DNA from: Shigella phage MK-13
Sequence record: MK509462
Direction: 5' to 3' (one strand)
Length of the DNA: 64,000 nt
A model generated the notes under the pieces. The model was not told the DNA's origin. It made no database searches and saw only the letters and a list, made by a program, of their open reading frames with translations. The position numbers and the translations under genes were made by a program. Below are positions 7,313 through 33,202 of this stretch, piece by piece (position 1 is the first letter of the stretch; each line of letters starts with the position of its first letter).

Positions 7313-7341
7313 AAAATATCTCCACAGCAAAAGGTGCTATT

Positions 7342-7842: not shown

Positions 7843-7884
7843 AATACGGTATAATTCTATGACATTGACAAGCTGGGATATTTT

Positions 7885-8337: not shown

Positions 8338-9083
8338 TGGCATCTCTCCAAGCCCTGCGCAAGCTGAACGACTTCGAAAATCGTCATTACACATTCCAGC
8401 AGTACGAACTTCCTCATAAGGAACTGGAGTGTGTGACGACGGAGAACGGTCGTCATTATGTGTCACCAACTGGTGTCAAGCTGACGTCTGTAACGACGAT
8501 GCTGGGGCGTACTGGTGATCATGAATGGCTTGAGGCTTGGAGGGAGAAGCTGGGTGCAGAGGCCGCCGACCTTGAGACCATGCGTTGCGCTGACCGAGGG
8601 GAGAAGCTGCACCTCGCATGTGAACTGTATTTGAAGAACCGCCCAATGAAAGAAGTGTTGGAAGCGGCTGGCGAATACATGTTCATGTTCAAGCAGCTGT
8701 TCCCCTATCTGAACAAGATGACAAAGATCTATGCTCAGGAGATCCCGTTATATAGCGAGGTGCTTGGTCTCGCAGGTCGAGTGGACCTTATCGGGGTTTA
8801 TGAGGGTAAGCCTGCTATCATCGACTTCAAGACATCGAACACCATGAAGACGCGGGGAATGATCGAGGACTACAGTATCCAGCTGTGCTTGTACTCTGTT
8901 ATGTTCCAGCAGATGTTCGGTGTCAAGATCACCCGCCTCATCAATGTGATTGCCAACGAGTCATCGTTGACGCCAACCATCATAGAGTTCAACCGCGATG
9001 ACATACTGACGAAGATGTTTGAGCGTGTTCGTCTGTACCATCGCATGGATAAAGAACAGAACGGAGTCTGGCCGGATCGCTAA
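8337..9083 (+). CDS. PD-(D/E)XK superfamily nuclease (YqaJ/Cas4-like exonuclease fold, no Fe-S cysteines)
   Basis: Motif GRVDLIG...IIDFKTS (D...D-x-K) typical of PD-(D/E)XK nucleases; start overlaps uvsY stop (ATGA). Confidence 0.5.
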   Translation: MASLQALRKLNDFENRHYTFQQYELPHKELECVTTENGRHYVSPTGVKLTSVTTMLGRTGDHEWLEAWREKLGAEAADLETMRCADRGEKLHLACELYLKNRPMKEVLEAAGEYMFMFKQLFPYLNKMTKIYAQEIPLYSEVLGLAGRVDLIGVYEGKPAIIDFKTSNTMKTRGMIEDYSIQLCLYSVMFQQMFGVKITRLINVIANESSLTPTIIEFNRDDILTKMFERVRLYHRMDKEQNGVWPDR

Positions 9084-9111
9084 ATACCCCATATATCTTG
9101 GGAGATTTTGT

Positions 9112-13524: not shown

Positions 13525-13989
13525 ATGGCGCGCAATACGCTAGACATATTGAACATTTCAGCCGTCAACGATGAGGCCAGCATCGTTGATTGTATGGTTG
13601 AAGTTCAATTGAACCAAGATCGGCCAGGAATATTCCTGGGGATCAAGGAAACACTGAGCCGAATTGGGGTAAACACGCGCCAAGAGCCGAATACTCTGTA
13701 TCAGACTTGTCATATTCTTCACAAGTATGGCAAGTATTATATCGTCCACTTCAAGCATCTGTTTATGCTGGACGGGCATTACAACGGGTTTAACCGCGAA
13801 GATGTCCTGAGGATGAACCGCATCATCAAGCTGCTCGAGCAGTGGAATATGGTGAAGGTCATTCATCCCGAGCAGGTCACCGAAGCCGCCGATATGTCAC
13901 GCATTAAAGTGGTTAAACACGATCAGGTTCCTGAATGGAAGCTGGTTCCAAAATACATTATCCGGCCTACAAAGGCCAAAAGCGAATAA
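13525..13989 (+). CDS. regA: translational repressor RegA
   Basis: Strong similarity to T4 RegA (LYQTCHILHKYGKYYIVHFKHLF...EWKLVPKYIIRP). Confidence 0.85.
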   Translation: MARNTLDILNISAVNDEASIVDCMVEVQLNQDRPGIFLGIKETLSRIGVNTRQEPNTLYQTCHILHKYGKYYIVHFKHLFMLDGHYNGFNREDVLRMNRIIKLLEQWNMVKVIHPEQVTEAADMSRIKVVKHDQVPEWKLVPKYIIRPTKAKSE

Positions 13990-14005
13990 CTGGAGTCGCT
14001 AAATC

Positions 14006-14875
14006 ATGACAACTACATTTTCTAAGAACGTGAATCTGAATCTGGCTTTCGGTAATGCAAAGGGCGATGTCACATCGCCCGACTTTGGTAAGATCCGCAA
14101 TCAGGCGAAACTGGTGCTGGAAGAGACCCGTGAACTGTTGGAGGCGGCGTACTACGATTGCGATGTGAAACTGGATCTGGTGCTCACACCTAAACAAGAA
14201 CCTTACCAGACCAGAACCATTCAGGAAATCCTGAAGGATATCATGGACGCCCAGGGTGATATCACCACTGTCAACGACGGTGTGGCTCATATTGCTGGTT
14301 TCGACGGTGACGAATGCTTACAGCGCGTGTATGCCTCTAACATGAGCAAGTTCATTCGTAATGAAGGTGAAGTTGTGCCTGCACTGGATTACTACTACAA
14401 CAAAGGCTTCCCACGCGAAAGTCTGCGCATCGAAGGGGAATTCCCCCAGGCGTGCATCAAAGTGGTAGACACCATCACCGTCGACGGCAAAGAGTACCCG
14501 GCTGGTAAGTTCCTGAAGAACATGGCAACCTTCAAAGAGCCGGACTTCAGTGATATGCTGACCACCGAGCCTAAGCGCCAGATCACCGAAATCATTCTGA
14601 CGGGCACGGCTACCCCAGGTCGACTCGGATGCAACGAACACGCTGGTGTTGCCTTCGCTCCGTTCGACTTTGTTGACGAGATCGTGGGATACACCAAGAT
14701 GGGCTTCCAGGCGTTCTCTGGCGAAACAGTCGAGAGTTATATTCCCGTGTTTGTTTTCAATGAAGACAACTTCCCAACTCTACCGTTGATCTGGGGTGAA
14801 TGGAAAGCCAACGTCCGTATCTATGTGGCCAGCCCAGTGCAATCATCTATCACCCAGCTGACCCGTATCGATTAA
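14006..14875 (+). CDS. hypothetical protein; N-terminus possibly MazG/gp56-like all-alpha NTP pyrophosphatase
   Basis: LVLEETRELLEAAYYD resembles the EExxE metal-binding helix of MazG-type enzymes; rest unassigned. Confidence 0.3.
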   Translation: MTTTFSKNVNLNLAFGNAKGDVTSPDFGKIRNQAKLVLEETRELLEAAYYDCDVKLDLVLTPKQEPYQTRTIQEILKDIMDAQGDITTVNDGVAHIAGFDGDECLQRVYASNMSKFIRNEGEVVPALDYYYNKGFPRESLRIEGEFPQACIKVVDTITVDGKEYPAGKFLKNMATFKEPDFSDMLTTEPKRQITEIILTGTATPGRLGCNEHAGVAFAPFDFVDEIVGYTKMGFQAFSGETVESYIPVFVFNEDNFPTLPLIWGEWKANVRIYVASPVQSSITQLTRID

Positions 14876-14944
14876 GATATACAGTTATTCACTAAACAAC
14901 AGAGGCTATAATGGCCTCTGTTTTTCGTATTCTAAGAGGATACC

Positions 14945-16165
14945 ATGAAAGATAAAGCCCTGGACGTCCCGTACTGCGGTGTCCGTGAAGAAAAGATAAA
15001 GTCGGCCAAACCGGTTCTCAGTCCGACCCATACCCGCCTTTCTTACGAATGGATGAGCGAGCGCTATAAGATCCACGTCAAGAAGGACGTCCAGCGTCTT
15101 CCTGCTCCTTGGACGAATAATCCTATACTACGGCAGGTCAAGTTCTGTAACGTCCGGAGAGAGCACGACAGGCAGTCTCTTAACCTGATCAACAACATCG
15201 TCAACAACGATGCTCTGGGTATGGCAGACAAGATGTTTAACTGCGTGCTGTTCCGCATGTTCAACCTCTGGGATCCGATCCAGGCTATCGGCGGCGCGAT
15301 GGCGATCAAAGAATTCGCCAAGATCAACCTTGACGCAACCCGCGAACGACTTCAGAAGTTCGAGGCCGACGGCGGCAAGGTGTTCACCAATGCCTTCAAC
15401 ACAGGCGGCCTGAAGCAATGCCTGGCTTTCCCTGAGCTGGTTGTCAACCACAAAGAGCAGCGCTTCGGTGGGATGATGGTGAACCTGATCTGTAAGGACG
15501 GTTCGACCCAGAACATGGATTATAAGGAAGCCAAGGCTATTGCTGAAGCAGAGCCGGACTTCTACACCATAGAAGGCTGGGAGCCGTACATGCCAATGCG
15601 TGTCATCCGTTCCCTGAAGGCATTCGTCAACAAGTATCCAAATTACTTCCATGACCTACTGCGCCTTGGTACTCCTCTGGAAGTATACCAGCGCATGTAC
15701 GACGACATCGAAGGTCTTGGTCCATTCCTGGCCTATCAGATCTGGGTTGATTTCACGTACATGCCTGGTTATCCGTTCAGTGAGAACCACTTCACGATCG
15801 CCGGACCGGGCTGTCGCGCAGGTATTGATCTGCTGTTCCTGAACAAGGACGGCATGACTCACGAAGAATGCATATTCTGGCTACGGGATAATCAGGACGC
15901 AGTATACTCCCAATATGGGTATGTTCGCGAGCAATTCTGGTCGGCCGAAGAGCCTGTAGACCAATGCATGAACGTTATGCAGCTGGAGAACATGTTCTGT
16001 GAACTGAGCAAGTACACTCGCTGTGTTGAGGCGGTTGGGCGCGGTGAAAAACCTCGGGGCAAGGTCAGCTATGACGGCGGTGGGGAATACAAAAAGCGCT
16101 GTGATGAAGTCGTGCTCAAACGTGGTTCCGTCAATTTGCTGGACCGTTTGAAGAAACCTGAATAA
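14945..16165 (+). CDS. hypothetical protein (406 aa)
   Basis: Long ORF with AGAGGA RBS; no motif recognised. Confidence 0.6.
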   Translation: MKDKALDVPYCGVREEKIKSAKPVLSPTHTRLSYEWMSERYKIHVKKDVQRLPAPWTNNPILRQVKFCNVRREHDRQSLNLINNIVNNDALGMADKMFNCVLFRMFNLWDPIQAIGGAMAIKEFAKINLDATRERLQKFEADGGKVFTNAFNTGGLKQCLAFPELVVNHKEQRFGGMMVNLICKDGSTQNMDYKEAKAIAEAEPDFYTIEGWEPYMPMRVIRSLKAFVNKYPNYFHDLLRLGTPLEVYQRMYDDIEGLGPFLAYQIWVDFTYMPGYPFSENHFTIAGPGCRAGIDLLFLNKDGMTHEECIFWLRDNQDAVYSQYGYVREQFWSAEEPVDQCMNVMQLENMFCELSKYTRCVEAVGRGEKPRGKVSYDGGGEYKKRCDEVVLKRGSVNLLDRLKKPE

Positions 16166-16280: not shown

Positions 16281-18299
16281 ATGTCAGAATTTAAGCCCTT
16301 CGCAGTAGCCGTAAACAATAATGTGCTGGCCATGTCAGCAACTGGTCTGTTCATGACCAACATCGATAAAGATGCTCTGTGGGATCTGTACCTGAACTCT
16401 TTCCCTGCTGGCACCAACCCGCTCTACCGTGAGCGCACCGAGCACGACTGCACCTGCTGTAAACAATTCATCCGTAACATCGGCGGTGTGGTGACCATCG
16501 ACGCCGACCTGAACGTGATCTCTATCTGGGATAACATTCAGCTGGGTAACGAATACGACGTTGTCGCTGCGGCGCTGTCTGCGTATGTCAAGCAACACGC
16601 AATCGTCGACGTGTACTTCAACGATACCAAGAAAGTCGGTGTTGAGTCGAATCACGAAATGAAAGACGGTAATGTCCGCACCTACAACCACTTCCACACC
16701 GACCTGCTGCCCAGCTATGTTCTGCGGGCTGATGCCATCGCTTCTAAGAAGGGTGAAATCCGCCAGGCGATTGAAGTGTTTGAGCGCGGCCTGCGTGAAC
16801 TGTCTCTGGAATCGGCCGAAATCGTTCTGGAACTGATTGATCAGAATTCTCTGTATCGTGGTGAAGAGCACAAAGCTGCTGTGCAGGCGTTCGTGACGAG
16901 CAAGACCATGTACGAACAAACTGCAGAAGAGAAACGCGCTCTGTGGGCTTGGCGTACTGGCTACCGTGCAAACGGACACACCCCTCACGGCATCCGCAAT
17001 ACCGTGATTGGCTCTCTGTTGGTAGACCTCAATGAAGGTCGGGATCTGGAAACCGCCGTGAAGTCCTTTGAAGCCAAAGTCGCTCCGACGAACTACAAGC
17101 GCCCAACCGCGCTGGTCACGAAGTCCATGATTGAAAACGCGCAGAAAGAAGTCGAAGCGCTGGGTCTGACTGATTCACTGGGTCGCCGTTATGCCGTGTA
17201 TGACGATCTGACCATCAACAACGTTTTGTTTGCCGACCTGGCAGCACAGAAGAAGATGGACCCGTTTGCTCAGCTGGCGTCTGAAGTGAAGACTCCGACC
17301 AAGTCCCTGGACAAGGTTGAAGAGATCACCATCGACGACTTCCTGACCAACGTGTTGCCAAAGGCGCATTCCCTGGAAGTGCTGGTTGAGAACTCTCACA
17401 CTGGCAACCTGATGTCCCTGATCGCCCCGGCTACGGTGGGTGCTCCTAACCTGTTCAAGTGGAACAACGGCTTCAGCTGGTCATACAATGGCGAAGTGGC
17501 CGACTCCATCAAAGAGCGCGTGAAGACAGCAGGCGGCAACGTCGACAGCTTCCTCCGTGTGTCGCTGGCGTGGCATAACAACGACGACCTGGATCTGAGC
17601 CTGAACGATCCTCTTCACAACCACGTGTATTTCAACAACCGTCGTTCGGCAACTGGTGCAACCCTGGACATCGACATGAACGGTATGGACGGTATTGACC
17701 CGAACCGCCGTCCGGTGGAGAACATCTTCTTCAGCGATGAACGCAAGCTGCGTGACGGGAACTATGAGTTCTATGTCACCAACTACAGCAAGCGCGAAAC
17801 CTGCGATGTGGGCTTCGAAATCGAAGTTGAATACAAAGGCCAGACCAAGCGCTTCTCGCATCCTGGTCTGGGTAACAAAGACCGCACGTTGGCTGTTGTG
17901 GTTCAGGTACGCGCTGGTCAGGTGGTCGACATCAGTTCTACCCTGAAAGACGACGCTCGCTCTCAGGAAATCTGGGGCATCAAGACCTCCGTCTTCCAGA
18001 AGGTACAGCTGGTTCTGAACTCACCAAACCATTGGGACGGCGAGCAGACGGGCAACAAGCACGTGTTCTTCATCCTGGAAGGTTGTGCTAACCCTGTCGG
18101 CACCCGTGGCTTCTACAACGAATATCTGAAGCCGGAACTTGATAAACACCGCAAGGTTTTTGAAATGTTAGGTGGTAAGATTAAAGTACAGCCAAGCACT
18201 GAGCAGCTGTCCGGTCTGGGCTTCTCTACCACCCAACGCAACCACGTGTTCGTGAAGGTGAGCGGCTCGTTCAACCGCACTGTGAAAGTTGTGTTCTAA
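16281..18299 (+). CDS. hypothetical large protein (672 aa) with N-terminal Cys cluster
   Basis: Long ORF with AGGAAG RBS; HDCTCCKQF motif; no catalytic family recognised. Confidence 0.6.
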   Translation: MSEFKPFAVAVNNNVLAMSATGLFMTNIDKDALWDLYLNSFPAGTNPLYRERTEHDCTCCKQFIRNIGGVVTIDADLNVISIWDNIQLGNEYDVVAAALSAYVKQHAIVDVYFNDTKKVGVESNHEMKDGNVRTYNHFHTDLLPSYVLRADAIASKKGEIRQAIEVFERGLRELSLESAEIVLELIDQNSLYRGEEHKAAVQAFVTSKTMYEQTAEEKRALWAWRTGYRANGHTPHGIRNTVIGSLLVDLNEGRDLETAVKSFEAKVAPTNYKRPTALVTKSMIENAQKEVEALGLTDSLGRRYAVYDDLTINNVLFADLAAQKKMDPFAQLASEVKTPTKSLDKVEEITIDDFLTNVLPKAHSLEVLVENSHTGNLMSLIAPATVGAPNLFKWNNGFSWSYNGEVADSIKERVKTAGGNVDSFLRVSLAWHNNDDLDLSLNDPLHNHVYFNNRRSATGATLDIDMNGMDGIDPNRRPVENIFFSDERKLRDGNYEFYVTNYSKRETCDVGFEIEVEYKGQTKRFSHPGLGNKDRTLAVVVQVRAGQVVDISSTLKDDARSQEIWGIKTSVFQKVQLVLNSPNHWDGEQTGNKHVFFILEGCANPVGTRGFYNEYLKPELDKHRKVFEMLGGKIKVQPSTEQLSGLGFSTTQRNHVFVKVSGSFNRTVKVVF

Positions 18300-18730: not shown

Positions 18731-18757
18731 AACCCCGCCATGTGCGGGGTTTCTTTT
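18731..18757 (+). terminator. rho-independent terminator
   Basis: aaccccgccatgtgcggggtt followed by T-run. Confidence 0.7.
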
Positions 18758-18768
18758 GGACAAAGAAT

Positions 18769-19170
18769 ATGAAACCTGTCATCTGTGATTACTGCGGCCT
18801 CCCAGCCGAATTCGTCGGTGGTGACGTCCTCCACCCTCATCGCCCTGACCTCCGCAATCTGAAGTTCTGGGTATGCACTCCATGTGGCGCTCGCGTCGGT
18901 TGCCATGCCCATGGCGACGGTAGACAACCTCTGGGAAGGATGGCGAATGCCGCTCTCCGTGCCGAGAAGCGAAAAGCCCATAGATCGTTTGACCCATTGT
19001 GGAAAAGCGGAGAGAGGAGCAGGAGCGACGCTTACAGTTGGCTGGCGCATAAGCTGGGGATCAAGAAGCGTGATTGCCATATCGGCTTGTTCGATATCGA
19101 CATGTGCCGTAAAGTAGTTGTTGTATGCAACCAATTACGGGAAACACAGAATGGCAACCATCAATCGTAA
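18769..19170 (+). CDS. zinc-finger protein (Cys/His-rich, 133 aa)
   Basis: CDYC...C..CGARVGCH Cys/His cluster. Confidence 0.5.
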   Translation: MKPVICDYCGLPAEFVGGDVLHPHRPDLRNLKFWVCTPCGARVGCHAHGDGRQPLGRMANAALRAEKRKAHRSFDPLWKSGERSRSDAYSWLAHKLGIKKRDCHIGLFDIDMCRKVVVVCNQLRETQNGNHQS

Positions 19171-19945
19171 TGAACCCAAAGGTGTTGAGCTGAAGGGTAA
19201 ATCTGTTCGCGAAGGTCTGAAGCTGTCTCCAGACCTCCTGAAGTCCCACATTGCTGAAGTCATCTATGAAGACCGTGAAGTCGGTGGTCATCGTGTCATC
19301 ACCTGCCATTTCAAGATGGACAACGGCTTTGTCGTCTTTGGTAAGAATAGCTCTACTTCCATCGACCCTGCCAACTTTGATGAAGAGTTGGGCAAGAAGC
19401 TGGCCTATGACAAGACTTTCTCCCAGTTGTGGGAACTGGAAGCCTACCGCGCCGTTGTGGAGAAGCAGATGTTGGAGGTGGCTACCGCCGATGCGAAGAT
19501 AGACATTTTCCAGTACATCTTCGAAAGGGGGAAGATAAACCAGATGGCTGGTATGGCATTCTTGAAAGGTCATAGCCAGTCTTTCGTGTTCCATCATCCA
19601 CGAGACCCAAGTCGCGGATTCGGTGCTGAATTTATTCATACCGACAACGAACTTCACAATGACCAACACAACAGCAAAGTCCAGGCCAGAGTGGAAACAT
19701 ATTTGCGTTCACACATGCGGCCTGATGAACTGTATTCTGAACTCGTTGTTCGCCTGGCCAAGACTTGCACGGCGGCTTACAAGGGTGGGATCTACTTTAA
19801 TGCCACCACTTGGGATAAGATGAGCGCCGAAGAGCAGAAAGGCTGCTGTGAAGACATTAGGCGGCTCTTGCTGGCTCCGGCGGATTATATCCCAACCGAC
19901 CAGAAGGACGCGCTGTTCAAGGCCATCGTCGATTCCTACAAATAA
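19151..19945 (+). CDS. hypothetical protein (264 aa)
   Basis: ORF overlapping upstream gene end; no motif recognised. Confidence 0.5.
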   Translation: MATINRNEPKGVELKGKSVREGLKLSPDLLKSHIAEVIYEDREVGGHRVITCHFKMDNGFVVFGKNSSTSIDPANFDEELGKKLAYDKTFSQLWELEAYRAVVEKQMLEVATADAKIDIFQYIFERGKINQMAGMAFLKGHSQSFVFHHPRDPSRGFGAEFIHTDNELHNDQHNSKVQARVETYLRSHMRPDELYSELVVRLAKTCTAAYKGGIYFNATTWDKMSAEEQKGCCEDIRRLLLAPADYIPTDQKDALFKAIVDSYK

Positions 19946-20055
19946 CTGAATTATCAAACTCCTTCAATATCAATGACGCCCAGTATATTTGCTGGGTGTT
20001 TCAATTTGTGCATCACAGTATAATACGGCTGTACAATACACCATGAGGCTACATT

Positions 20056-20910
20056 ATGTTTCGTTTGAAATTGAACGACCAAGATGTGTTCTACAAACAC
20101 TTCACCTTCCCAGGTGGTGAGGAACATATCAAGATCCAAAAGTCTGGTATCCCTATCGGCCACGTCCAGAACGTGGCGATTGATGCTCACATCAAATCAT
20201 CAGCCGACTTCGTTGAGCTGGCACTGCTGGTTAACGCCGTGCGCGGCCTGGGTAACGTGGACCGTCTGACGACCTTCCATGCGTATATCCCTTACTTCCC
20301 GTATGCTCGCCAGGACCGCCATTGCGACTTCGGCGAGCCTCTGTCCGTGAAGTGGGCGGCTGAGTTCATCAATAGCATGAACTTTGACCGCGTGGCGATC
20401 AAAGACCCTCACAGCCATGTTGTGTCTTCTCTTATCAACAACGTCCATGTGGTCCCGCAAGATTACATCGTGCGGCAGTATCTGGGCTGGTTCATCCGTG
20501 GGAACAACGCTGTGTTGGTAGCCCCTGACGGCGGCGCGGCTAAGAAGACCGAAGCCCTCAGCCTGTCTCTGGATGGCGTTCCTGTTGTCTACGGACACAA
20601 GAACCGTGACGCCAAGACTGGTGAGATCATTGGGGTGAGTATTACAACCCCTGAACTGATCAAAGACCGTTATCTGGTGGTGGTCGATGATATCTGCGAC
20701 GGTGGGCGCACGTTCGTTGAGTTAGGCAAAGAGCTTCAGAAGCACAAGCCCAAACACATGACGCTCTTCGTTACCCATGGCATCTTCAGCAAAGGGCTTT
20801 CCGTGTTCGACGGGATCTACGATGCTGTGTATGCCGACACTGTCTGGTGGGAGAATATCACCGCCGACGGTCTTCCTTTCAAAACTGAAAATACAGGACG
20901 TGTAAAATGA
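20056..20910 (+). CDS. ribose-phosphate pyrophosphokinase (Prs)-like; candidate ADP-ribose pyrophosphokinase
   Basis: Prs signature YFPYARQDR and PRPP-binding loop VVVDDICDGGRT. Confidence 0.85.
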   Translation: MFRLKLNDQDVFYKHFTFPGGEEHIKIQKSGIPIGHVQNVAIDAHIKSSADFVELALLVNAVRGLGNVDRLTTFHAYIPYFPYARQDRHCDFGEPLSVKWAAEFINSMNFDRVAIKDPHSHVVSSLINNVHVVPQDYIVRQYLGWFIRGNNAVLVAPDGGAAKKTEALSLSLDGVPVVYGHKNRDAKTGEIIGVSITTPELIKDRYLVVVDDICDGGRTFVELGKELQKHKPKHMTLFVTHGIFSKGLSVFDGIYDAVYADTVWWENITADGLPFKTENTGRVK

Positions 20911-22571
20911 GCATGCGCCACTTAGACCCAATCCATGCAATCGACTTCTACAAATCAGGGCACATCTATCAGTTCCCTGAAGGCAGCGAGCTGGTGTTCT
21001 CCAACGGAACTCCGCGCTCCAACAAACTGTTCAACTCTCACCTGCCGAAGAACGGCGTGGTGGTCTGGGGCATCCAGGGTTTCATGACTTGGTTCCATGA
21101 ACTGTTTGACGAAGCATTCTTCCAGCGCCCGAAGGCCAAGGTGTTGAAGAAGTATGCCCGTCGCATGAACAAAGTCCTGGGTCCAGGCCGCGTCGGCACA
21201 GAGCATATTGAAGCCCTGCATGACCTCGGCTACCTGCCTATCGAAGTCCGCGCGCTGCCTGAAGGCACCATGTGCCCGTATGGCGTTCCGGTGTATGTGA
21301 TGTTCAACACCCTGCCGGAGTTCTACTGGCTGACCAACTATCTGGAGACTGTGTTCAGCTCTGAGATCTGGAAGCCGATGACGAACGCCACTATCGCTCT
21401 GCATTACAAGGCACTGATGGTGAAAGCTGCCCTCGCTACAGGCGTGTCACCGGACCATTGGTTCATCGACTACCAAGGCCACGACTTCTCCTTCCGTGGC
21501 ATGAGCGGGTGGCATGACGCGGCGTCTTCCGGTTCCGGTCATCTGGTGTTCTTCAAAGGCACCGATACCAACCCTGCCCTGGACTTCGTTGAAGAGTATT
21601 ATGGCGCAGACATCGACGAAGACTATGTCGTTGCTGGCTCCGTTGCGGCTACAGAACACGCCGTGATGTGTATGGGTACGAAGGATGGTGAATTCGAAAC
21701 CTTCCGCCGCCTGGTGCAGGACGTGTATCCTGATGGCATCGTCAGCATCGTGTCTGATGCGTGGGATTACTGGCAGGTCATCGACGACTATCTCCCTCGC
21801 CTGAAAGATATTATCATGGCGCGTAACGGTAAAGTCGTGATCCGCCCTGACTCGGGCGACCCAGTTCATATCGTCGGCGGCTACCGCATTGAGGGGTTCA
21901 AAGACCGCGCCACGCTGAACATCAGCGGCGTGTCTAGCAGCACTGAAGTCATTCACATCGAAGAGACGAACACCTATCACCTGATCACAGGCGAAGGCAC
22001 GATCAACTCTCTGATGGCAGACGACCGTAATATCATCAGCCGTTCTGAAGCAGTCGGCTCTATCCAGCGACTGTGGGAGATCTTTGGCGGTACTCAAACT
22101 GAAACTGGCCACTTCCTGTTGGACGAACACATCGGTCTGATCTACGGTGACTCCATCACCCTGGCGCGTGAAGACCAGATCTTTAGCCGTCTGGCTGGCC
22201 GGAACTTCGCTTCCATCAACGTGGTGTTCGGTATCGGTTCCTACACCTACCAGATGAACACCCGTGACAGTACTGGCACGGCGGTGAAAGCAACGGCTGG
22301 TAAGGTGAACGGTGAATTCCGTGAGATCTTCAAAGAGCCGAAGACCGACAAAGGCGGGACTAAAAAGTCTGCGCGTGGTTTCCTTAAAGTCATTAAAGAC
22401 TCTCAGGGTAAACTAGTGTTGGTTGACGGTATCACCTTTGATCAGGTGCAAGACGCCGACAACCAGCACCAGCTGGTGTATCGTGATGGCAAGTTCTTCA
22501 ACACTCAAACTCTGGAAGATGCGCGTGTCCGCGCCGCTCCTCTGGTAGCAGAACTGGCATCACAAATCTGA
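20907..22571 (+). CDS. nicotinamide phosphoribosyltransferase (Nampt/NadV)-like; candidate nicotinamide ADP-ribose transferase
   Basis: N-terminal DFYKSGHIYQFP matches Nampt DSYKVTHYKQYP block; length 554 aa; start overlaps Prs stop (ATGA). Confidence 0.85.
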   Translation: MSMRHLDPIHAIDFYKSGHIYQFPEGSELVFSNGTPRSNKLFNSHLPKNGVVVWGIQGFMTWFHELFDEAFFQRPKAKVLKKYARRMNKVLGPGRVGTEHIEALHDLGYLPIEVRALPEGTMCPYGVPVYVMFNTLPEFYWLTNYLETVFSSEIWKPMTNATIALHYKALMVKAALATGVSPDHWFIDYQGHDFSFRGMSGWHDAASSGSGHLVFFKGTDTNPALDFVEEYYGADIDEDYVVAGSVAATEHAVMCMGTKDGEFETFRRLVQDVYPDGIVSIVSDAWDYWQVIDDYLPRLKDIIMARNGKVVIRPDSGDPVHIVGGYRIEGFKDRATLNISGVSSSTEVIHIEETNTYHLITGEGTINSLMADDRNIISRSEAVGSIQRLWEIFGGTQTETGHFLLDEHIGLIYGDSITLAREDQIFSRLAGRNFASINVVFGIGSYTYQMNTRDSTGTAVKATAGKVNGEFREIFKEPKTDKGGTKKSARGFLKVIKDSQGKLVLVDGITFDQVQDADNQHQLVYRDGKFFNTQTLEDARVRAAPLVAELASQI

Positions 22572-22613
22572 TAACCGAAGGGGAGGAAACTCCCCTGTTT
22601 TGAGGGAAACCTG

Positions 22614-22973
22614 ATGTCTGTGAAGATGAAAGGTGTCGAGTTCAATGCGTACTACCACGATGATGAATATTGGGTGAACGGCGCTTGGCACGACGATCAT
22701 TGCATCAAAGTCAATGGTGAATATCGCGAAGATGTAGACGCAGATATCCCCGATGACGCCGATGTGGTTATTGAATCCGGCGTGGTCTATGTTCCTGTGA
22801 ATGGCGAAAGCGGGGTGGAAGAAAAAGACATCTCACTCGTCACCCATTTCAAGAACTGGCGCAAACAGAAGAATTTCTCCTTCATTGTCGTGACGGTGGA
22901 GAAGAACAAGGTCGCCGATGTTCGCCAAGCCCTGCGGTCGATCCCTGGTGTCACCGAAGTCAAAGGTGGCTGA
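22614..22973 (+). CDS. hypothetical acidic protein (119 aa)
   Basis: ORF with GAGGGAAA RBS. Confidence 0.45.
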   Translation: MSVKMKGVEFNAYYHDDEYWVNGAWHDDHCIKVNGEYREDVDADIPDDADVVIESGVVYVPVNGESGVEEKDISLVTHFKNWRKQKNFSFIVVTVEKNKVADVRQALRSIPGVTEVKGG

Positions 22974-22975
22974 CA

Positions 22976-23145
22976 TGGCCAAACCATTTGAACGTGCGGG
23001 CGTCGACAACCTCGACCGCCGCTTTAGCCCATCGGAAACGCTGATGAGTCAGATTGAACTCAATCGCGATTTCCTGGAACACATGCTGGTCAAGCCGGAA
23101 GGTGAGGCCGAAGACAACCCTGAAGAAGGCAATAACGATGATTGA
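22976..23145 (+). CDS. hypothetical small acidic protein (56 aa)
   Basis: Short ORF tightly packed between neighbours. Confidence 0.3.
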
Positions 23146-25339
23146 ATCATTAGAATTTAAGAATGCGGTTGAGACTGCTGCCCCGTCCAACCATGTAATC
23201 GTTGTGGACATCTCTTATTCGATGTACCGTGCGCTCCCTGAAGTCCGTAAGCATCTGAAGGAGAACCTGCCTTCTCTGGTGAAACCGGAAGACACTGTGA
23301 GTGTTCTGTATTTCTCCTCCAAAGGCGACTTTGGCACAGTGTTTGCTGGTCGTCAAATCAGCGCGGCTTCCGACCTGAGTGAGATGAACAAACTGATCGA
23401 CCGCTTCCTACAACCGTCCGGATGCACCGGATTCGTGGAACCTCTGGGTCTGGCTGTAGACACCGCTCGTAGTCTGAAGAAGCCTGGTTATGTCAACAAC
23501 CTGGCATTCATGACCGACGGCTATGACAACTGCTGGCGCTCCAATGAAATCCTGGCCGTCGCCGAAACCCTGCCATTTGCTTTCGATAACATTACATTTA
23601 TCGAATACGGCTGGTACTGTAACCGCGAACTGCTGGCTCTGATGTCTGAGCGCTCCGGTGCGACCCACGTGTTTGCCGAAGGTCAGGTTGAGTATCAGGC
23701 CGAGCTGGAAACCGTGCTGAAGTCTTCAGTGCCGAAGGTGGTTGTTGATGTGCCTCTGCTATACACCCACGCCATCTATGTTGAAAACGGCGTGGCAACT
23801 GTTCTGGCAGTACAGGCAGACTCAGAGCATCCCGTTGGCCACGTGAGCATCCCTGAGAGCGTCACGAAGCTGTGGGTCGTCAATCCTAACATGATCGACC
23901 AGCTTGATGCGCTGGCGGACATCCAGGCGGCATACGTGCTGGCGTTCTATGGCGTACACATCATGGACGCCGATTTGGTATGGGCTGCCCTGAAGAAAAC
24001 GGGTGACGTTCGCTTCATCAAACAGTACAGCAACTGCTTCACCAAGCAGGACTACTCCAACATCAAGATCGATCTGGTTCAGGCTATTGTTGACGACCAG
24101 CTGCGCGGCGTTGACGGTATTGACTATGACCTGGTTCCAGCTGAAGATGCGACGACCGTCGTTGACGTGCTGACGTATCTGGCTGAAGCTGGCGTGTGTG
24201 TTGCTACCAAACATCCTATGTTCTCCTACAAGAGCATCGGTCGCGGTACGGCTCAGAAACTGGACGATACCGAAGACAAGCTGGCAGAACAGATCGCGAA
24301 CGCCGAGTCCAAAGAAGAGCGCAAAGCCCTGGCTCTCAAGCTGGCCGAGCACGAAGAGTGGAACCCGACGTTCGAACCTAACAACGATCTGGGTGTTGTG
24401 CCAATCAGCGATTTGGTCTATAACTCCGAACGCCCTAATATCAGTGTACGCACTGTCCAGCACGGCACTGTGGCGATTCCGGAGTTCGTGCAGAAGAAGT
24501 TCGGTCTGCCTGAAGAACTGGATACTTTCCAATGGCGCAACTACACCATCGTCAAAGACGGCATCATCAACGTGAAGACTCTGCCGTTCAGGGCTGATGT
24601 TGAAGTTGTAACCAATCTGTGCCAGATGGGCGTCCATGTGTTCGGTGGTCCGGAAGTGTTTGTCCTGAACCTGGAAAGCGTACCGCTGGTCAACCGCGCC
24701 ATGGTCAAGAACATCAGTGCTGCTCAGTTCTTTGCGGATAATGTCCGTCTGGAAGCCCTGAAAGGCAAGCAGAAGGTGCTGAAGTTCTTCCGTGATGAAC
24801 TGGTTGGCAAAGGTAACGCCAAAGGCCTGGCAGTACAGTACGGTGCTGAGGCGGCCGAGTTCCTGTCCTTCTACGGCATCCGTGATTACGGCTTCTCACC
24901 GAAGACCGAACTGAAGGACTCCACGGATGTCTACATGAGCCGTGAGCTGAACGTTAAGATCGCTGGAGCGTCTTCTCTGCCTAGCATCGCGGCAGTACAG
25001 AAGAAGATTGCCGAGAACAAGAAACTCAATGCGGGTGACTTGTTCATCGCCAATGCTCTGAAGGAATACGAAGCATTCGTGAAGTCTCCTGCGATCACTG
25101 CCGTGCCTGAAGCCGTACAGAAACAGCTGATCGAAAACTGGATCGACGCTGCTGCCAAGGCGGCCATCACTGAAGTCCGCGCCCTGAACAAGACGCTGTC
25201 TAAAGTGGTGTATGGTATCGTTGCTGGTCACGGCTGGTTCACCGACCTCGACCTGGAAGAGTCCACCATGGAAGTTGAAGTGGATGGTGTGAAGTACAAG
25301 GTCACTGCCGAACTGGCAGAGAAAGAGATCAAAATCTAA
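23138..25339 (+). CDS. von Willebrand factor A (vWA) domain protein (733 aa)
   Basis: MIDAS-like VVVDISYSM (D-x-S-x-S) near N-terminus followed by TDG...D elements; long C-terminal extension of unknown function. Confidence 0.65.
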   Translation: MIESLEFKNAVETAAPSNHVIVVDISYSMYRALPEVRKHLKENLPSLVKPEDTVSVLYFSSKGDFGTVFAGRQISAASDLSEMNKLIDRFLQPSGCTGFVEPLGLAVDTARSLKKPGYVNNLAFMTDGYDNCWRSNEILAVAETLPFAFDNITFIEYGWYCNRELLALMSERSGATHVFAEGQVEYQAELETVLKSSVPKVVVDVPLLYTHAIYVENGVATVLAVQADSEHPVGHVSIPESVTKLWVVNPNMIDQLDALADIQAAYVLAFYGVHIMDADLVWAALKKTGDVRFIKQYSNCFTKQDYSNIKIDLVQAIVDDQLRGVDGIDYDLVPAEDATTVVDVLTYLAEAGVCVATKHPMFSYKSIGRGTAQKLDDTEDKLAEQIANAESKEERKALALKLAEHEEWNPTFEPNNDLGVVPISDLVYNSERPNISVRTVQHGTVAIPEFVQKKFGLPEELDTFQWRNYTIVKDGIINVKTLPFRADVEVVTNLCQMGVHVFGGPEVFVLNLESVPLVNRAMVKNISAAQFFADNVRLEALKGKQKVLKFFRDELVGKGNAKGLAVQYGAEAAEFLSFYGIRDYGFSPKTELKDSTDVYMSRELNVKIAGASSLPSIAAVQKKIAENKKLNAGDLFIANALKEYEAFVKSPAITAVPEAVQKQLIENWIDAAAKAAITEVRALNKTLSKVVYGIVAGHGWFTDLDLEESTMEVEVDGVKYKVTAELAEKEIKI

Positions 25340-25381
25340 TCCAACGGGCGGGGCAACCCGCCTTTCTTTGGGAGAAGTAGC

Positions 25382-25708
25382 ATGAGCAGTAAACCAACAT
25401 ATGTTGAAGTCATGCGTCATCTGGCTCAGTACGCCACTGACAATCTGAACTTAGATGCAGACGAGGTGAAATACCCAAACGTCAAGAAAATGATTGACGG
25501 TGAAGTTGCCACAGACGATGCGTTGGATAAGTTTGCAGGCCTCCGCACCAAGAAGGATCTCGGCGGTGATGAACTGGACGCTATCGAAATTGTAATGGAC
25601 CTCGAAGAAGAGTTTCAGGTCGAAATCGACGACGGTTGGCTGGGTAGTAAAGGCGATGACCCGACCATGGGTGAACTCGCTGAACTCGTGGTTGCCCTGC
25701 GCAAATAA
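25382..25708 (+). CDS. acyl carrier protein-like protein lacking the phosphopantetheine-attachment serine
   Basis: DLGGDELDAIEIVMDLEEEFQVEI aligns with ACP helix II [24 protein letters not shown] but has Glu where the modified Ser should be. Confidence 0.7.
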   Translation: MSSKPTYVEVMRHLAQYATDNLNLDADEVKYPNVKKMIDGEVATDDALDKFAGLRTKKDLGGDELDAIEIVMDLEEEFQVEIDDGWLGSKGDDPTMGELAELVVALRK

Positions 25709-25714
25709 CAGAAG

Positions 25715-25739
25715 TCCCCAACGTTTGTTGGGGATTTTT
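25715..25739 (+). terminator. rho-independent terminator
   Basis: tccccaacgtttgttgggga followed by T-run. Confidence 0.7.
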
Positions 25740-25749
25740 ACTTTTAGGG

Positions 25750-25779
25750 GTTTACTTCCTCTAAGGAATATCCTATTAT
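25750..25779 (+). promoter_or_regulatory. T4-type early promoter (-35 GTTTAC, -10 TATTAT)
   Basis: GTTTAC, 18-nt spacer, TATTAT directly after terminator. Confidence 0.45.
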
Positions 25780-25831
25780 TCAATAACTGGCGAACGATGG
25801 GGTTCACCAGGTTGAAAGGTAAGATTATATC

Positions 25832-26071
25832 ATGAAGAACAAAATGGTCGAAACTTCAGTAGAGATTGATCGCAATTGGGGCTTGCTCCGCGCTAAAGGG
25901 TTCCGCCGTGTGTATGCGACCAAAGAGGTATATGCCCAGCGCCGTGACGTTATCATCAGCAAGAAGGGCAAAGAGTGGGTTGCTGAAGAAGTCGATGTTG
26001 AGACAGGCGTCGTCGGCAAGGTGAAAGCCAAGGCCGCGATCCTCTTCGCTCTTCTGAAGCACATCAGCTAA
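25832..26071 (+). CDS. hypothetical protein (79 aa)
   Basis: ORF with conserved aaggtaagattatatcATG context. Confidence 0.4.
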   Translation: MKNKMVETSVEIDRNWGLLRAKGFRRVYATKEVYAQRRDVIISKKGKEWVAEEVDVETGVVGKVKAKAAILFALLKHIS

Positions 26072-26083
26072 TTCTATAAACTC

Positions 26084-26133
26084 CGGCGGGGTATGATTAC
26101 CCCGTCTATTTGAAATGCAGGAACTATATCATG
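26084..26133 (+). repeat. intergenic hairpin cassette copy 1 (near-identical copy at 26643..26692)
   Basis: cggcggggtatgattaccccg...atttgaaa...tatatcATG; about 40 of 50 positions shared with copy 2. Confidence 0.7.
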
Positions 26134-26637
26134 ACCGATCAACAAATTCAAGATTTATTTTACCTCGCCCATGATAAGTCCCACATCATGCGCCCCGGTA
26201 CTGTTTCCCCTGCCGTCCGTGATCTGGTGCAAGAATTACGCGAACCACAGACGACCACACTTTATCGCGGGCTGCCTAAGGAGGACGTTGCGCGTTTAGA
26301 GATGTTGTTTGAACGAGGCGACATGTTCCAGACATGGGATTCTTGTCTTAGCTTCAGTGAACTGAAGCATGTGGCCAAACAATTTTCTAAATCGTACGGA
26401 ACCAAAGCTGTTGCCCGCATTTGTTACAAACATCGAAACGGACTCCCGGAGGGGCTTAATGTCTATGGTTCTCTAGAAAAATTTGTGAACAAAGGCGATG
26501 AATCAGAAATGGATATGCTGGACTTGGCGTCCATGGAGAAAGAATGGATATTCTGCCAGCCTCGCGTCATACCAGTTTCAAGAAAAATGGCAACAGACGG
26601 GACGATGGTTTTTACCGTATCACTTGTTACCCTATAA
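26131..26637 (+). CDS. hypothetical protein (168 aa), flanked by direct-repeat cassettes
   Basis: Start placed at ATG after conserved ctatatc context; bracketed by the 26084 and 26643 repeats. Confidence 0.5.
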   Translation: MTDQQIQDLFYLAHDKSHIMRPGTVSPAVRDLVQELREPQTTTLYRGLPKEDVARLEMLFERGDMFQTWDSCLSFSELKHVAKQFSKSYGTKAVARICYKHRNGLPEGLNVYGSLEKFVNKGDESEMDMLDLASMEKEWIFCQPRVIPVSRKMATDGTMVFTVSLVTL

Positions 26638-26642
26638 ACCCA

Positions 26643-26692
26643 CGGCGGGGTATGATTACCCCGCCCATTTGAAACCAAGAGACTATATCATG
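26643..26692 (+). repeat. intergenic hairpin cassette copy 2
   Basis: See copy 1. Confidence 0.7.
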
Positions 26693-27064
26693 AAAAAGTT
26701 AATCCTCGCTGTTGCCCTGCTGGGTGCTTCCTTTGCTGCTGTTTCCGCCCCTCCTGTCATCACCGGAGTGTCTACCAACGGCGTTTATGCTTTCAAGGCG
26801 TATGGCCAAGACCTCGTTCTGTATAAGAACGGGAAGATGATTGAGCGCTGTGTAGCGGATGGTGTAAACCGTGGGATCGACAATCAGGGCAGTCCGTTCA
26901 TCCTGGACTTCTATGCCTGCTCCAACGGGACGAAGACCTTTGGTGTCAAGACCTTCGGCAACGTCGCCGACGGCGGCTGGGGCTTCATGATCGAAACCCG
27001 CAACCGCCGCCCGGTCACGACCATTGAAGAAGAGTTCTTGATCTCTGTCGGGGGCACGTTATGA
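26690..27064 (+). CDS. putative secreted protein (signal peptide, 124 aa)
   Basis: N-terminus MKKLILAVALLGASFAAVSA is a classical Sec signal peptide. Confidence 0.5.
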   Translation: MKKLILAVALLGASFAAVSAPPVITGVSTNGVYAFKAYGQDLVLYKNGKMIERCVADGVNRGIDNQGSPFILDFYACSNGTKTFGVKTFGNVADGGWGFMIETRNRRPVTTIEEEFLISVGGTL

Positions 27065-27348
27065 CACCATCAGAGAGAAGTTCTATCAAGGAGATGATCA
27101 GAGACAAGGCGTGTGTTGGCCATACTCAGTCAGAGAACATCTTGCGCCTGATGGAGGTCAAGAATCATATCGACAATGGCCGATTCCAATCAGCGTTGTA
27201 TGGTATGCTGGAGTTTATATCGCGGTCATCTGATCTTGGCACGGTCCGATATCTTGACGATCTGACCAAGCTGCTGAACACGGGCGGGGAAACTTTCGAC
27301 ACCGCTCGTATCCTGATTGACGGTGGACCTGAAGAAGACGAGGTGTGA
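27061..27348 (+). CDS. hypothetical protein (95 aa)
   Basis: ORF overlapping upstream stop (ATGA). Confidence 0.45.
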   Translation: MTPSERSSIKEMIRDKACVGHTQSENILRLMEVKNHIDNGRFQSALYGMLEFISRSSDLGTVRYLDDLTKLLNTGGETFDTARILIDGGPEEDEV

Positions 27349-27458
27349 TGGTGGACATTGAATTTTGGGGTTGGCTTATTGGATGTTCATTGGGCGTCTT
27401 GCTCGTTTTGTTGTGTGAATATCTCGGAGCCGTACTGTGTAAGACATTTCACGCCTAA
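27348..27458 (+). CDS. hypothetical small membrane peptide (36 aa)
   Basis: Sub-threshold ORF, start overlaps upstream stop; single hydrophobic helix GWLIGCSLGVLLVLL. Confidence 0.3.
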   Translation: MVDIEFWGWLIGCSLGVLLVLLCEYLGAVLCKTFHA

Positions 27459-27491
27459 CTAAGGGATAATCCATATCCCGAGGTGAATCTC

Positions 27492-27941
27492 ATGTTCATG
27501 TCTTCCTTCATAGACTGGTTGAACATTATCAACGGCCTGAGGATTCCTGTCGGAAACCTCGGGCTTTCTCGTTCTTCTATGCCACAGATCGACGATGACA
27601 AGCAGCAGGCGTTCCATGACTACCTGGAGGAACTTGGCATCACCATCGACGCTGGCCAGGTTCCTATCAAATCCCTCCGTCTCACCCAGAACGAAATCAA
27701 CAAGATGAAGGTCTGGAAGATCATGAAGAACATCAGAAACAAGAAGCCCATGGGTCGGGTTTGGGTGTCTTCTGATAACTATGTGGTCGACGGCTCGCAC
27801 CGCTATGTCGCCGCCCTGAACATGGATGACCGTCAGCGCATCAAGGTCTACAAAGTGGACATGCCAGCGATGGAGTTCGTCAAGGTCGCCAAGCAGTTCA
27901 AGGGTGTGAAGTTCAGAACCGTGTCTGACGCTCGCTTCTGA
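27492..27941 (+). CDS. ParB/sulfiredoxin-like nuclease-domain protein
   Basis: VVDGSHRYVAA resembles ParB N-terminal-domain GxxR-type motif; GAGG RBS. Confidence 0.45.
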   Translation: MFMSSFIDWLNIINGLRIPVGNLGLSRSSMPQIDDDKQQAFHDYLEELGITIDAGQVPIKSLRLTQNEINKMKVWKIMKNIRNKKPMGRVWVSSDNYVVDGSHRYVAALNMDDRQRIKVYKVDMPAMEFVKVAKQFKGVKFRTVSDARF

Positions 27942-31483: not shown

Positions 31484-33202
31484 GTGACAGCATTCAACCA
31501 ATATACCAAGGCGCTTGATGGCGTCGGACCAGTTAGCATAGACCGCATCAAGTCTCTTGCCACTGAGTTCTTCCCATACGACACCGCCAACCCAGGACAG
31601 ATGGAGTGCATCGTTGAAGCCGTTGATGCCCTTGTGAATAAGAAATTCAAACACGTGATCATCGAGGCTCCGACTGGTGTGGGCAAATCCCTCATTGGCA
31701 CTACCATCCATAACGTGCTTCGCCATCTGGTTCTTGAGCGCAACCCATATGGTCAGTTCCGCACGTCTATCACAACACCGACCAAAGGGTTACAAGATCA
31801 GTATGCGGCTGAAAGGGCAGTGGCGATAGACATCCTGAAGGGCAAGAAGAACTATCGTTGTCATATCAGCCCTGACCTGTATTACAATGCTATCCAGTGC
31901 CGTATGGCATGCCGAGATGGCCACTGTAATAAAAATCGTTGCCCATATGTTCAGGCTCGTCGTCTTTGGACGGACATCTCTTCTCTGCGCTGCACCAACG
32001 CCGCCATGATGGTGGAGATGTGCACGACGATCTGTATGAAGCCCGAAAACCGCGCCGATATGCTGATCCTTGACGAGTGCCATAAAATGCCCTCTACGCT
32101 CCTAGAGCACACGATCATGGAATACAGCATAAAGGCTGTGGAAGGGTTGCTTACGATCCCCGAGGGAGTGCCTATCGTGGAACTCATCAAGGATATCATC
32201 ATCCGCACAGAGAACTATGAATTGGGCAAGCTGTATTCCCTGTCTGGTGAGATGCATGCGATATTTGACGACCTGCATGACAAGGTTGAAGCCCTGCTGG
32301 AAACCCTTGAGGAACTGGTAGAGGACGAGCGCCTGACTGAAGCCCAGGTGATGAAGTTGTCGGACATCATTGACACCCTTCACAACCTCAGCGACTACTG
32401 TGGGATCATGGGGCAGACCAACGCCAGCACCTTCATCGTGCAGGAGAAGGACAAGGGCATGATTCAGTTCAAGCCTGTCATCGCATCTGATGTATCCCAG
32501 TTCGGCCTGTTCCGCAAGGGTGACTACCACGTTCACATGTCGGCGACCATTTGTGGGATTGACTCGTACGCTCGGTCACTGGGTATCCGTGAGGGCGAGT
32601 ACCACAAGATTCAGATCGGAAACCCTATCCCGATTGAGAACCGGAAAGTCAACTACATGCCCATCATGAAGATGACGGCGAACATGGGTGACTATGAGAT
32701 GAAGAAGCTGGCCGAATACGTGGATGAAATCATCGCATTCCACCCTGGGCAGTCTGGCATCATTCACACAGTAAGTTATGACCGCGCCCTGGCTCTACAG
32801 AAGTTCAGTAAGTACCGGAATATGATTCACGTTCCTCGTACTCGTAAGGCTCTAATGGACATCATGGAACACGCGTTCCGGACCAAGAAGCCTTGTGTCA
32901 TCGCCAGTCCGGCTATGGAAGAGGGGTATGACTTCAAAGGCGATTACAGCCGATTTCAGATCTTGATCAAGGTTCCATACGATTACCTTGGTGATCCTCT
33001 GGTGGCTCACGTCAACAGTGTAGACCCATCGGCGTACTTCAGGATGGCGGTACTGCGTATCGTTCAGATGTGCGGGCGTTCGGTCAGGGGCGTGAATGAC
33101 TGGGCTGCGACATACATCCTTGATTCTTCTTTTGAATCACTGATGATGCGCAACCCAGAGTTCTTCCCCGCTTGGTTTACTGATGCCGTGTTCGAGGTTT
33201 AG
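31484..33202 (+). CDS. DinG/XPD-like SF2 helicase with Cys-rich (Fe-S-type) insertion
   Basis: Walker A APTGVGKS, DECH box, eight Cys between them; GTG start with TAGGAGG RBS. Confidence 0.7.
   Translation: MTAFNQYTKALDGVGPVSIDRIKSLATEFFPYDTANPGQMECIVEAVDALVNKKFKHVIIEAPTGVGKSLIGTTIHNVLRHLVLERNPYGQFRTSITTPTKGLQDQYAAERAVAIDILKGKKNYRCHISPDLYYNAIQCRMACRDGHCNKNRCPYVQARRLWTDISSLRCTNAAMMVEMCTTICMKPENRADMLILDECHKMPSTLLEHTIMEYSIKAVEGLLTIPEGVPIVELIKDIIIRTENYELGKLYSLSGEMHAIFDDLHDKVEALLETLEELVEDERLTEAQVMKLSDIIDTLHNLSDYCGIMGQTNASTFIVQEKDKGMIQFKPVIASDVSQFGLFRKGDYHVHMSATICGIDSYARSLGIREGEYHKIQIGNPIPIENRKVNYMPIMKMTANMGDYEMKKLAEYVDEIIAFHPGQSGIIHTVSYDRALALQKFSKYRNMIHVPRTRKALMDIMEHAFRTKKPCVIASPAMEEGYDFKGDYSRFQILIKVPYDYLGDPLVAHVNSVDPSAYFRMAVLRIVQMCGRSVRGVNDWAATYILDSSFESLMMRNPEFFPAWFTDAVFEV

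Follow-up and report, generated by a model that had tools for sequence, protein, structure and literature searches.

A conserved phage vWA-domain protein with a predicted ArnB/Sec23-24-type module and a family-specific C-terminal module

Within the genome of Shigella phage MK-13 (record MK509462), we analyzed a window of 64,000 nucleotides, a term used here for the whole stretch of DNA and the reference for coordinates unless another record or contig is named. The window belongs to an Agtrevirus of the family Ackermannviridae, and the gene considered here encodes a protein with an N-terminal von Willebrand factor A (vWA) domain. The 733-residue open reading frame (ORF) reported in a preliminary description of this DNA is a real gene, with an ATG start preceded at about 8 nt by a GAAGG Shine-Dalgarno sequence and a near-identical copy in Salmonella phage SKML-39 (98.3% identity in DNA and 99.2% in protein); phages Ag3, P46FS4, Gloob and ChubbyThor carry copies with 94-96% DNA identity. 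Its product matches the PHROG 2426 profile over its entire length (E = 0, 1216.8 bits, residues 1-733 on profile positions 2-736 of 736), is acidic (isoelectric point, pI, 5.0; net charge -28), and has neither an evident N-terminal signal peptide nor a long hydrophobic stretch in its sequence. The flanking genes are those named in the preliminary description, Prs, Nampt and ACP, as judged by their Pfam and PHROG matches (Table 1).

The N-terminal vWA domain, also claimed in that description, is upheld by the Pfam matches of homologues and by a complete, conserved MIDAS (metal ion-dependent adhesion site). Searched as a single sequence, the protein reaches 17.4 bits against Pfam VWA_3, below the cut-off of 27. 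Among 45 full-length homologues with identities down to 26%, 41 match VWA_2 at E values of up to 10 (38 of them at E <= 0.01; best 6e-07) and 26 match Pfam VWA (best 2.2e-10). Moreover, the family profile matches the vWA domain of ITIH1 (E = 2.7e-4) and also that of TRAP, and because of these matches of the homologues and the profile we regard the assignment as settled. The domain has the Rossmann-like alpha/beta fold of approximately 180-200 residues that defines vWA domains. In the alignment of the 45 homologues the DxSxS...T...D signature of the MIDAS is complete, with D24, S26 and S28 conserved in at least 90% of the sequences and T97 and D127 invariant. The sequence motif had been described as MIDAS-like, which holds, while its spelling as VVVDISYSM contained a one-letter slip, the actual sequence being IVVDISYSM (residues 21-29).

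Together with the residues that follow it, the vWA domain is predicted to form a larger unit, an ArnB/Sec23-24-type module spanning residues 1 to ~320 with a functional-looking MIDAS, because the secondary structure of the model agrees with that architecture. ArnB and Sec23/24 have in common a vWA domain, a beta-sandwich that the vWA domain divides, and a C-terminal helical bundle, the sandwich and the bundle providing extra protein-docking surfaces (PMC12852372). The model of the phage protein begins with a short N-terminal strand, continues with the vWA domain to residue ~195, and adds strands over residues 200-248 and helices over residues 250-318, such that vWA domain, beta-sandwich and C-terminal helical bundle lie in a single chain; structural comparisons span 248 residues with ArnE/VWA2 and 290-303 residues with Sec24. 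The closest known systems are ArnB, a regulator of the Sulfolobus archaellum, its paralogue ArnE/VWA2, and the structural-genomics protein 4fx5 from Catenulispora acidiphila, to all of which the phage protein is just 11-16% identical. ArnB is 380 aa long and stops at the helical bundle, whereas the phage protein extends for ~410 residues more, and no partner of the ArnB type (the zinc-finger/FHA protein ArnA, a kinase or a phosphatase) is linked to the phage gene. No zinc-finger or FHA domain was found in the vWA protein, the product of an overlapping 56-aa ORF contains no cysteines, and the conservation of the vWA gene does not extend to a DUF3268 zinc-finger gene lying 4 kb upstream, of which Kuttervirus has a 23-aa remnant.

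The Sec23/Sec24 core of the COPII coat, with its trunk vWA, beta-sandwich, helical and gelsolin domains, is an architectural relative of the phage protein. The Sec23/24 trunk is without a functional MIDAS, and these proteins carry a zinc finger at the N-terminus and a gelsolin domain at the C-terminus, neither of which is resembled by the C-terminal module of the phage protein; a membrane-coat context is likewise missing in the phage. A DNA-end binder of the Ku70/Ku80 type was also considered, for its layout in which a beta-rich core and then a helical arm come after a vWA domain, and was rejected, as the match to Ku runs through the vWA domain only, residues 250-733 yield none, and the protein is acidic. 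The architecture of Ku70/Ku80 and INTS13/14, where the Ku beta-barrel ring and a helical arm succeed the vWA domain, is thus not that of the phage protein.

The preliminary description had regarded the ~500 residues after the vWA domain as having no recognised motif. This is true with respect to Pfam, NCBIfam and PADLOC, none of which returned a match for the C-terminal part (for PADLOC, no homology to defence systems), and Pfam searches across 45 family members at E <= 10 produced inconsistent signals only; it does not apply to residues 196 to ~320, which are assigned here to the predicted beta-sandwich and helical bundle. Structure prediction of the C-terminal region, proposed in the same description, gave a confident separate model of residues 250-733 (pLDDT 91.7, pTM 0.84; the predicted local distance difference and template modelling scores) in which the C-terminal module matched no solved fold. 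A search of BFVD structures with this model recovered four family members only. One of them, A0A127AX08, is a 361-aa protein of Bacillus phage SP-15, whose DNA is hypermodified. With 12% identity and a Foldseek E of 9e-10 it matches just the C-terminal module, which suggests either that the module can exist without a vWA domain or that the SP-15 gene is split. The module is well conserved, and across the 45-homologue alignment F301, Q304, Y364, R432, N434, N468, D474, G475, G569, W700 and F701 are invariant.

Table 1. Features of the vWA gene and its surroundings in the window (nucleotide positions; residue numbers refer to the vWA protein)
Feature	Coordinates	Strand	Remarks
vWA gene	23138..25339	+	733 aa; stop codon 25337-25339; PHROG 2426 member
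vWA domain, residues 1-195	23138..23722	+	Rossmann-like; complete MIDAS
MIDAS codons	D24/S26/S28 23207-23221; T97 23426-23428; D127 23516-23518	+	
Predicted beta-sandwich (~196-249), then helical bundle (~250-320)	23723..24097	+	residues 196 to ~320
Family-specific alpha/beta module, residues ~321-733	24098..25336	+	no detectable relative of known fold
C-terminal conserved motifs			NCFTKQDYS 299-307; RPNIS 432-436; RNYTIVKDGI 467-476; GIRDYGFSPK 580-589
Further conserved motifs			KIxGxSSLP 607-615 (in this protein KIAGASSLP, against a family consensus of VKIKGLSSLP); WF 700-701; C-terminal EKEIKI
56-aa acidic ORF (p56)	22975..23145	+	stop overlaps vWA start by 8 nt
Intrinsic-terminator-like hairpin	25346..25363	+	GGGCGGG-GCAA-CCCGCCT, T-rich tail; 7 nt past vWA stop
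ACP homologue	25382..25708	+	PP-binding and PHROG 4154 matches
Prs	20056-20910	+	Pfam and PHROG matches; context only
Nampt	20907-22571	+	Pfam and PHROG matches; context only
Segment missing from Kuttervirus	18742-22973	+	DUF3268 zinc-finger, gp49/66-like, Prs, Nampt, p119; Kuttervirus locus L032 8605-8850
XPD/Rad3/DinG-type helicase	31484-33202	+	Helicase_C_2/DEAD; 6 kb downstream of vWA gene
5-hmdU DNA kinase helical domain protein	14945-16165	+	406 aa; PF18723, E = 3e-81
p672 orphan	16281-18299	+	672 aa; PHROG 1735; no Pfam/NCBIfam match

The family to which this protein belongs is large and widely distributed among phages. A word-indexed search recovered 108 full-length homologues of 670-775 aa, and an exhaustive profile search of metagenomic representatives, each a cluster at 50% identity, recovered 3618 with E < 1e-3, of which 1012 have E < 1e-30; among the matches listed, nearly all are full length. 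The gene is carried by 502 sequenced phage records. In Ackermannviridae these include Agtrevirus, Limestonevirus, Kuttervirus, Taipeivirus and relatives; in Straboviridae, Pseudotevenvirus and Slopekvirus-type phages (~175 kb) as well as Shewanella phage Thanatos; and elsewhere, Rhizobium Pootjesviridae and a Bacillus Takahashivirus. Metagenomic contigs with homologues bear T4-type hallmarks (Gp23, gp13, gp15 and gp32). A core-gene table places the protein among 85 core proteins of 150 Vi01-like phages (PMC10892097). PHROG 2426 and pVOG VOG3102 (Vi01-like and some T4-like phages) are the protein's own family, of which it is a full-length member and for which no function is assigned; the VOG3102 assignment comes from the annotation of Kuttervirus rabagast, and several GenBank records already label the gene a 'vWA domain protein'. 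The view of this protein as unusual is thus not borne out, as it is a catalogued core gene of Ackermannviridae with many sequenced relatives and existing vWA annotations. Between Agtrevirus and Kuttervirus the vWA protein is 82% identical, comparable to the replicative XPD-like helicase (84%) and far above ACP (59-61%), because of which it appears to be under strong purifying selection.

In GTDB species genomes a scan turned up 12 loci, and two of these lie on large contigs of isolate genomes. Both carry full-length homologues, one in Achromobacter anxifer (L027, positions 7104-9284 of a 487-kb contig, 59% GC) and one in Novimethylophilus kurashikiensis (L022, positions 7140-9287 of a 225-kb contig, 55% GC), which are 60% identical to each other. 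Their flanks contain cellular genes (ABC/HlyD, MYG1, RCC1-like) and ORFans, and a PHROG scan of the neighboring genes at these two loci gave no matches; the loci may be islands or cryptic prophages, and would be the only contexts observed that are not phage-like.

In the study of Vi01-like phages, the term 'von Willebrand' occurs once, in the core-gene table, and does not appear in the parts covered here of the mass-spectrometry table of CsCl-purified Sajous1 virions (PMC10892097). ACP is listed in that virion table with a single spectrum (PMC10892097), probably a contamination of the preparation. The genome of Kuttervirus selz has been reduced by iterative CRISPR deletion, in the course of which 'genes 2-7' were lost as a large fragment (PMC9825161), and we searched the complete genome of the viable mutant selz_8t2 (OL964747.1, 122,191 bp) with the proteins of the window. 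The mutant retains homologues of the 5-hydroxymethyldeoxyuridine (5-hmdU) kinase, ACP, p79 and the helicase, and genome-wide it gives no match to the vWA protein, to p123 or to p672 beyond its first 22 codons, the deletion junction being internal to the record. This loss of the block from p672 to the vWA gene agrees with the published 'genes 2-7' deletion. Since selz_8t2 is viable with a genome that has no vWA gene, plaques can form on the laboratory Salmonella host without this gene.

The surroundings of the gene are conserved in part and only within Ackermannviridae, where the order is p672 - p123 - small ORF - vWA - ACP. Kuttervirus rabagast has exactly this arrangement and no Prs or Nampt at the locus. 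Nampt is present in 2045 phage records, of which ~85 are close to the copy in the window. Because the Kuttervirus locus is devoid of the pair and close copies of Nampt are few, the segment with Prs and Nampt (plus the zinc-finger gene and p119) appears, from these sequence comparisons, to be an insertion specific to the Agtrevirus/Limestonevirus branch, which would make the 'embedding' of the vWA gene in an NAD module a lineage accident. In Escherichia phage RPN242 the vWA gene has ~90% DNA identity and the Nampt match is fragment-sized (8% coverage), and the NAD+ salvage cassette may on this suggestion have been gained and be decaying within Ackermannviridae.

Adjacency of the vWA gene to ACP is likewise restricted to Ackermannviridae, where the ACP homologue diverges far faster between Agtrevirus and Kuttervirus than its neighbors do (~82-89% identity). 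The hairpin between the two genes is, by consensus matching only, the top-scoring terminator-like site within positions 19000-27500; a transcription unit probably closes with the vWA gene, ACP being transcribed separately. At the other end, the 56-aa ORF adjoins the vWA gene in 208 Ackermannviridae records (43-100% identity), Kuttervirus rabagast again included, and was not found beyond this family; the 8-nt overlap suggests translational coupling, and its product is a candidate lineage-specific partner. Two records, OR844942.1 ('Enterococcus phage Efm 3-10', 111 kb) and MN871475.1 ('Pseudomonas phage Pa-sanjiao', 158 kb), contain p56 at 43-75% identity and carry Kuttervirus-like sequence despite their host names, and are probably mislabelled or contaminated.

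In all lineages examined, the vWA locus lies in early/middle-type non-structural blocks, and on their strand, among genes such as those of nucleotide metabolism, ligase, clamp loader and small ORFans, and its expression probably falls in the early or middle period. Comparison of neighbors at 20 loci from at least eight divergent lineages (tblastn, phmmer and blastp) revealed no common gene besides the vWA gene, which is the only one common to Straboviridae, Pootjesviridae, Takahashivirus and metagenomic large phages within 8-10 kb on either side. No conserved operon partner was found in this comparison, the sole linked gene being the Ackermannviridae-specific 56-aa ORF. Other genes of the window include the 5-hmdU kinase homologue, annotated as 'hypothetical' in some records, which marks the thymidine-hypermodification pathway of ViI-like phages; p672, which is 82% identical in Kuttervirus, is called a 'putative DNA-directed RNA polymerase' in one record and was deleted along with the vWA gene in selz_8t2; and the XPD-type helicase, whose homologues have a wide and patchy distribution over Vibrio phages, Rhizobium phages, haloarchaeal tailed viruses and Lak megaphages.

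Several explanations can be weighed against these data. The preliminary description had named two roles that would contradict its own view, that of a virion component and that of a cobalt-chelatase-like subunit with a partner elsewhere in the genome, and we consider a virion or assembly protein, or a cobalt/magnesium chelatase subunit, extremely improbable. Automatic annotations of homologues do read 'minor tail protein' (Roth88/Roth90) and 'magnesium chelatase' (SeF3a), but the protein is unlisted in the parts covered of the Sajous1 virion table (PMC10892097), a Limestone-derived 'unknown structural protein' label sits on neighboring genes and not on the vWA gene, the gene resides in non-structural blocks and is deleted in a viable mutant, and the genome encodes neither AAA+ chelatase I/S nor H/N subunits. 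The protein is accordingly non-virion, within the reach of that table and of the deletion mutant, and is not a chelatase subunit. That the vWA protein is functionally tied to Prs/Nampt or to ACP, for example as a pathway scaffold, was implicit in its description as embedded in an NAD/ACP block and is highly improbable, even though Prs, Nampt, p119, p56 and the vWA gene run head to tail on one strand up to the terminator-like hairpin and the adjacency to ACP is kept across Ackermannviridae. The link to Prs/Nampt is rejected because of the Kuttervirus locus, where vWA and ACP occur and the pair is missing, and because of the distribution of Nampt: the co-occurrence proposed as a check fails, as Nampt has four times as many phage records as the 502 of the vWA family, with leading organism groups that are mostly different. 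Outside Ackermannviridae no ACP or NAD gene lies beside vWA homologues and the lineages have no neighbors in common, and the selz_8t2 mutant has kept ACP and lost the vWA gene.

A partnership with an ATPase deserves separate consideration. Cytoplasmic prokaryotic vWA proteins with a MIDAS are commonly paired with MoxR ATPases, and the phage protein could correspondingly be a co-chaperone or adaptor that hijacks a MoxR-class ATPase of the host (e.g., RavA) for substrate delivery in the manner of ViaA, NorD or CbbO. MoxR-vWA pairs have been described in jumbo phages (Iyer et al., PMC7824862), and one jumbo-phage contig, a metagenomic contig of 451 kb (L002), has AAA (PF00004) and ClpB-like AAA_2 genes (positions 6380-7933 and 13965-15194) within 4 kb of its vWA homologue, the sole such locus observed. 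However, the preliminary statement that no AAA+ partner is adjacent was confirmed and extended by Walker-A scans followed by Pfam, which covered the window and the remaining 95 kb of SKML-39 and detected no AAA+ protein of the MoxR, CobS or BchI class. The AAA+/P-loop proteins of the window are a gp44-type clamp loader, PhoH, an SMC-like recombination (SbcC-type) ATPase, UvsW and the XPD-like helicase, and over the window and the rest of SKML-39 together P-loop proteins comprise clamp loader, PhoH, SbcC-type ATPase, helicases and kinases only. Additionally, the vWA domain is C-terminal in ViaA, NorD, CbbO, CobT and BchD, and these proteins rely on a neighboring AAA+ ATPase, whereas here the architecture is reversed, with the vWA domain N-terminal (residues 1-195 of 733) and no such ATPase encoded; other lineages have no conserved AAA+ neighbor, and hosts spanning Bacillus to Rhizobium have no single conserved MoxR. 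We therefore hold a hijacked host ATPase to be quite unlikely. A role as regulatory subunit of the phage XPD/Rad3-like helicase, in analogy to p44/Ssl1 of TFIIH, is more improbable still: both genes occur in this window and in both Ackermannviridae and Rhizobium Pootjesviridae, the only groups where the two distributions overlap, but the pairing was rejected because co-occurrence by tblastn fails in Straboviridae, Vibrio phages and haloarchaeal viruses and because selz_8t2, which kept the helicase and lost the vWA gene, uncouples the two. Among Klebsiella phage records ~160 have the vWA gene and 44 the helicase, Slopekvirus and Pseudotevenvirus are without the helicase, and the helicase occurs in 77 records of Vibrio phages and in haloarchaeal virus records, groups that do not figure among the organisms most often counted for the vWA gene. 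The vWA protein also has neither C-terminal zinc fingers nor a Cys-rich C-terminus, and its structural similarity to p44/Ssl1 is confined to the generic vWA fold. Finally, the C-terminal module might be an enzyme for nucleotide, cofactor or protein modification that the vWA/ArnB-like module merely regulates or localizes, as could be argued from its compact, confidently predicted fold, from the invariant polar residues Q304, Y364, R432, N434, N468 and D474 amid otherwise divergent sequence, and from the SP-15 protein. This is unlikely, given that the module resembles no enzyme fold or family and has no recognisable nucleotide- or metal-binding motif, and that no metabolic neighbor is conserved.

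The reading we favor, with moderate confidence, is that of a stand-alone, non-structural, cytoplasmic, MIDAS-dependent protein-binding accessory factor with a conditional role in host takeover or counter-defence. In characterised vWA domains with a MIDAS, coordination of Mg2+ is completed by an Asp or Glu carboxylate of the partner protein. By analogy with this established biochemistry, metal-dependent protein capture is the most likely activity: the N-terminal ~320 residues would serve as an ArnB/Sec23-24-type interaction platform, and the MIDAS would most likely bind Mg2+ and capture an Asp/Glu carboxylate of a host or phage target protein. The C-terminal module presumably provides an effector or second binding function, because of its invariant polar set and the stand-alone occurrence in SP-15. 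The net role would most likely be conditional, contributing to fitness in host takeover or counter-defence rather than to core replication or assembly, because the gene is dispensable in the laboratory and apparently under strong purifying selection. Some observations weigh against this interpretation. Counter-defence genes are usually patchy and fast-evolving, and the deep, near-universal conservation in Ackermannviridae is atypical of them; the strong acidity of the protein would suit a scaffold that binds proteins, without being diagnostic of one; and dispensability rests on one host and a multi-gene deletion background.

The gene itself and its vWA annotation are already known from the PHROG, pVOG and GenBank entries mentioned above, and literature searches found no experimentally characterised phage homologue. 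What is new relative to the literature searched is the predicted N-terminal ArnB/Sec23-24-type module, a C-terminal module of 410 residues modelled as being without structural precedent, and a family of >1000 clusters at 50% identity that has no conserved partner. A bolder and rather doubtful extension is that the ~410 C-terminal residues are a new fold with a new activity and that the family, with its clusters in large myoviruses and a few bacterial ORFan islands, is an unrecognised class of AAA+-independent effectors of host manipulation or counter-defence, which would grip a conserved target in the bacterium by means of the ArnB/Sec23-24-type MIDAS platform. Should the C-terminal module indeed be a new fold or activity, the family would be of general interest; otherwise it would be an ordinary conserved hypothetical protein. 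The question of its function is in any case narrowed, as the protein is non-structural, is neither a chelatase nor a MoxR cofactor, and has no tie to the NAD genes. Ackermannviridae are in wide use for the biocontrol of Salmonella, E. coli O157 and Dickeya, and the vWA protein is one of their larger conserved proteins. It is found in many T4-like and jumbo phages as well, and its laboratory dispensability together with purifying selection makes it a tractable candidate host-interaction factor.

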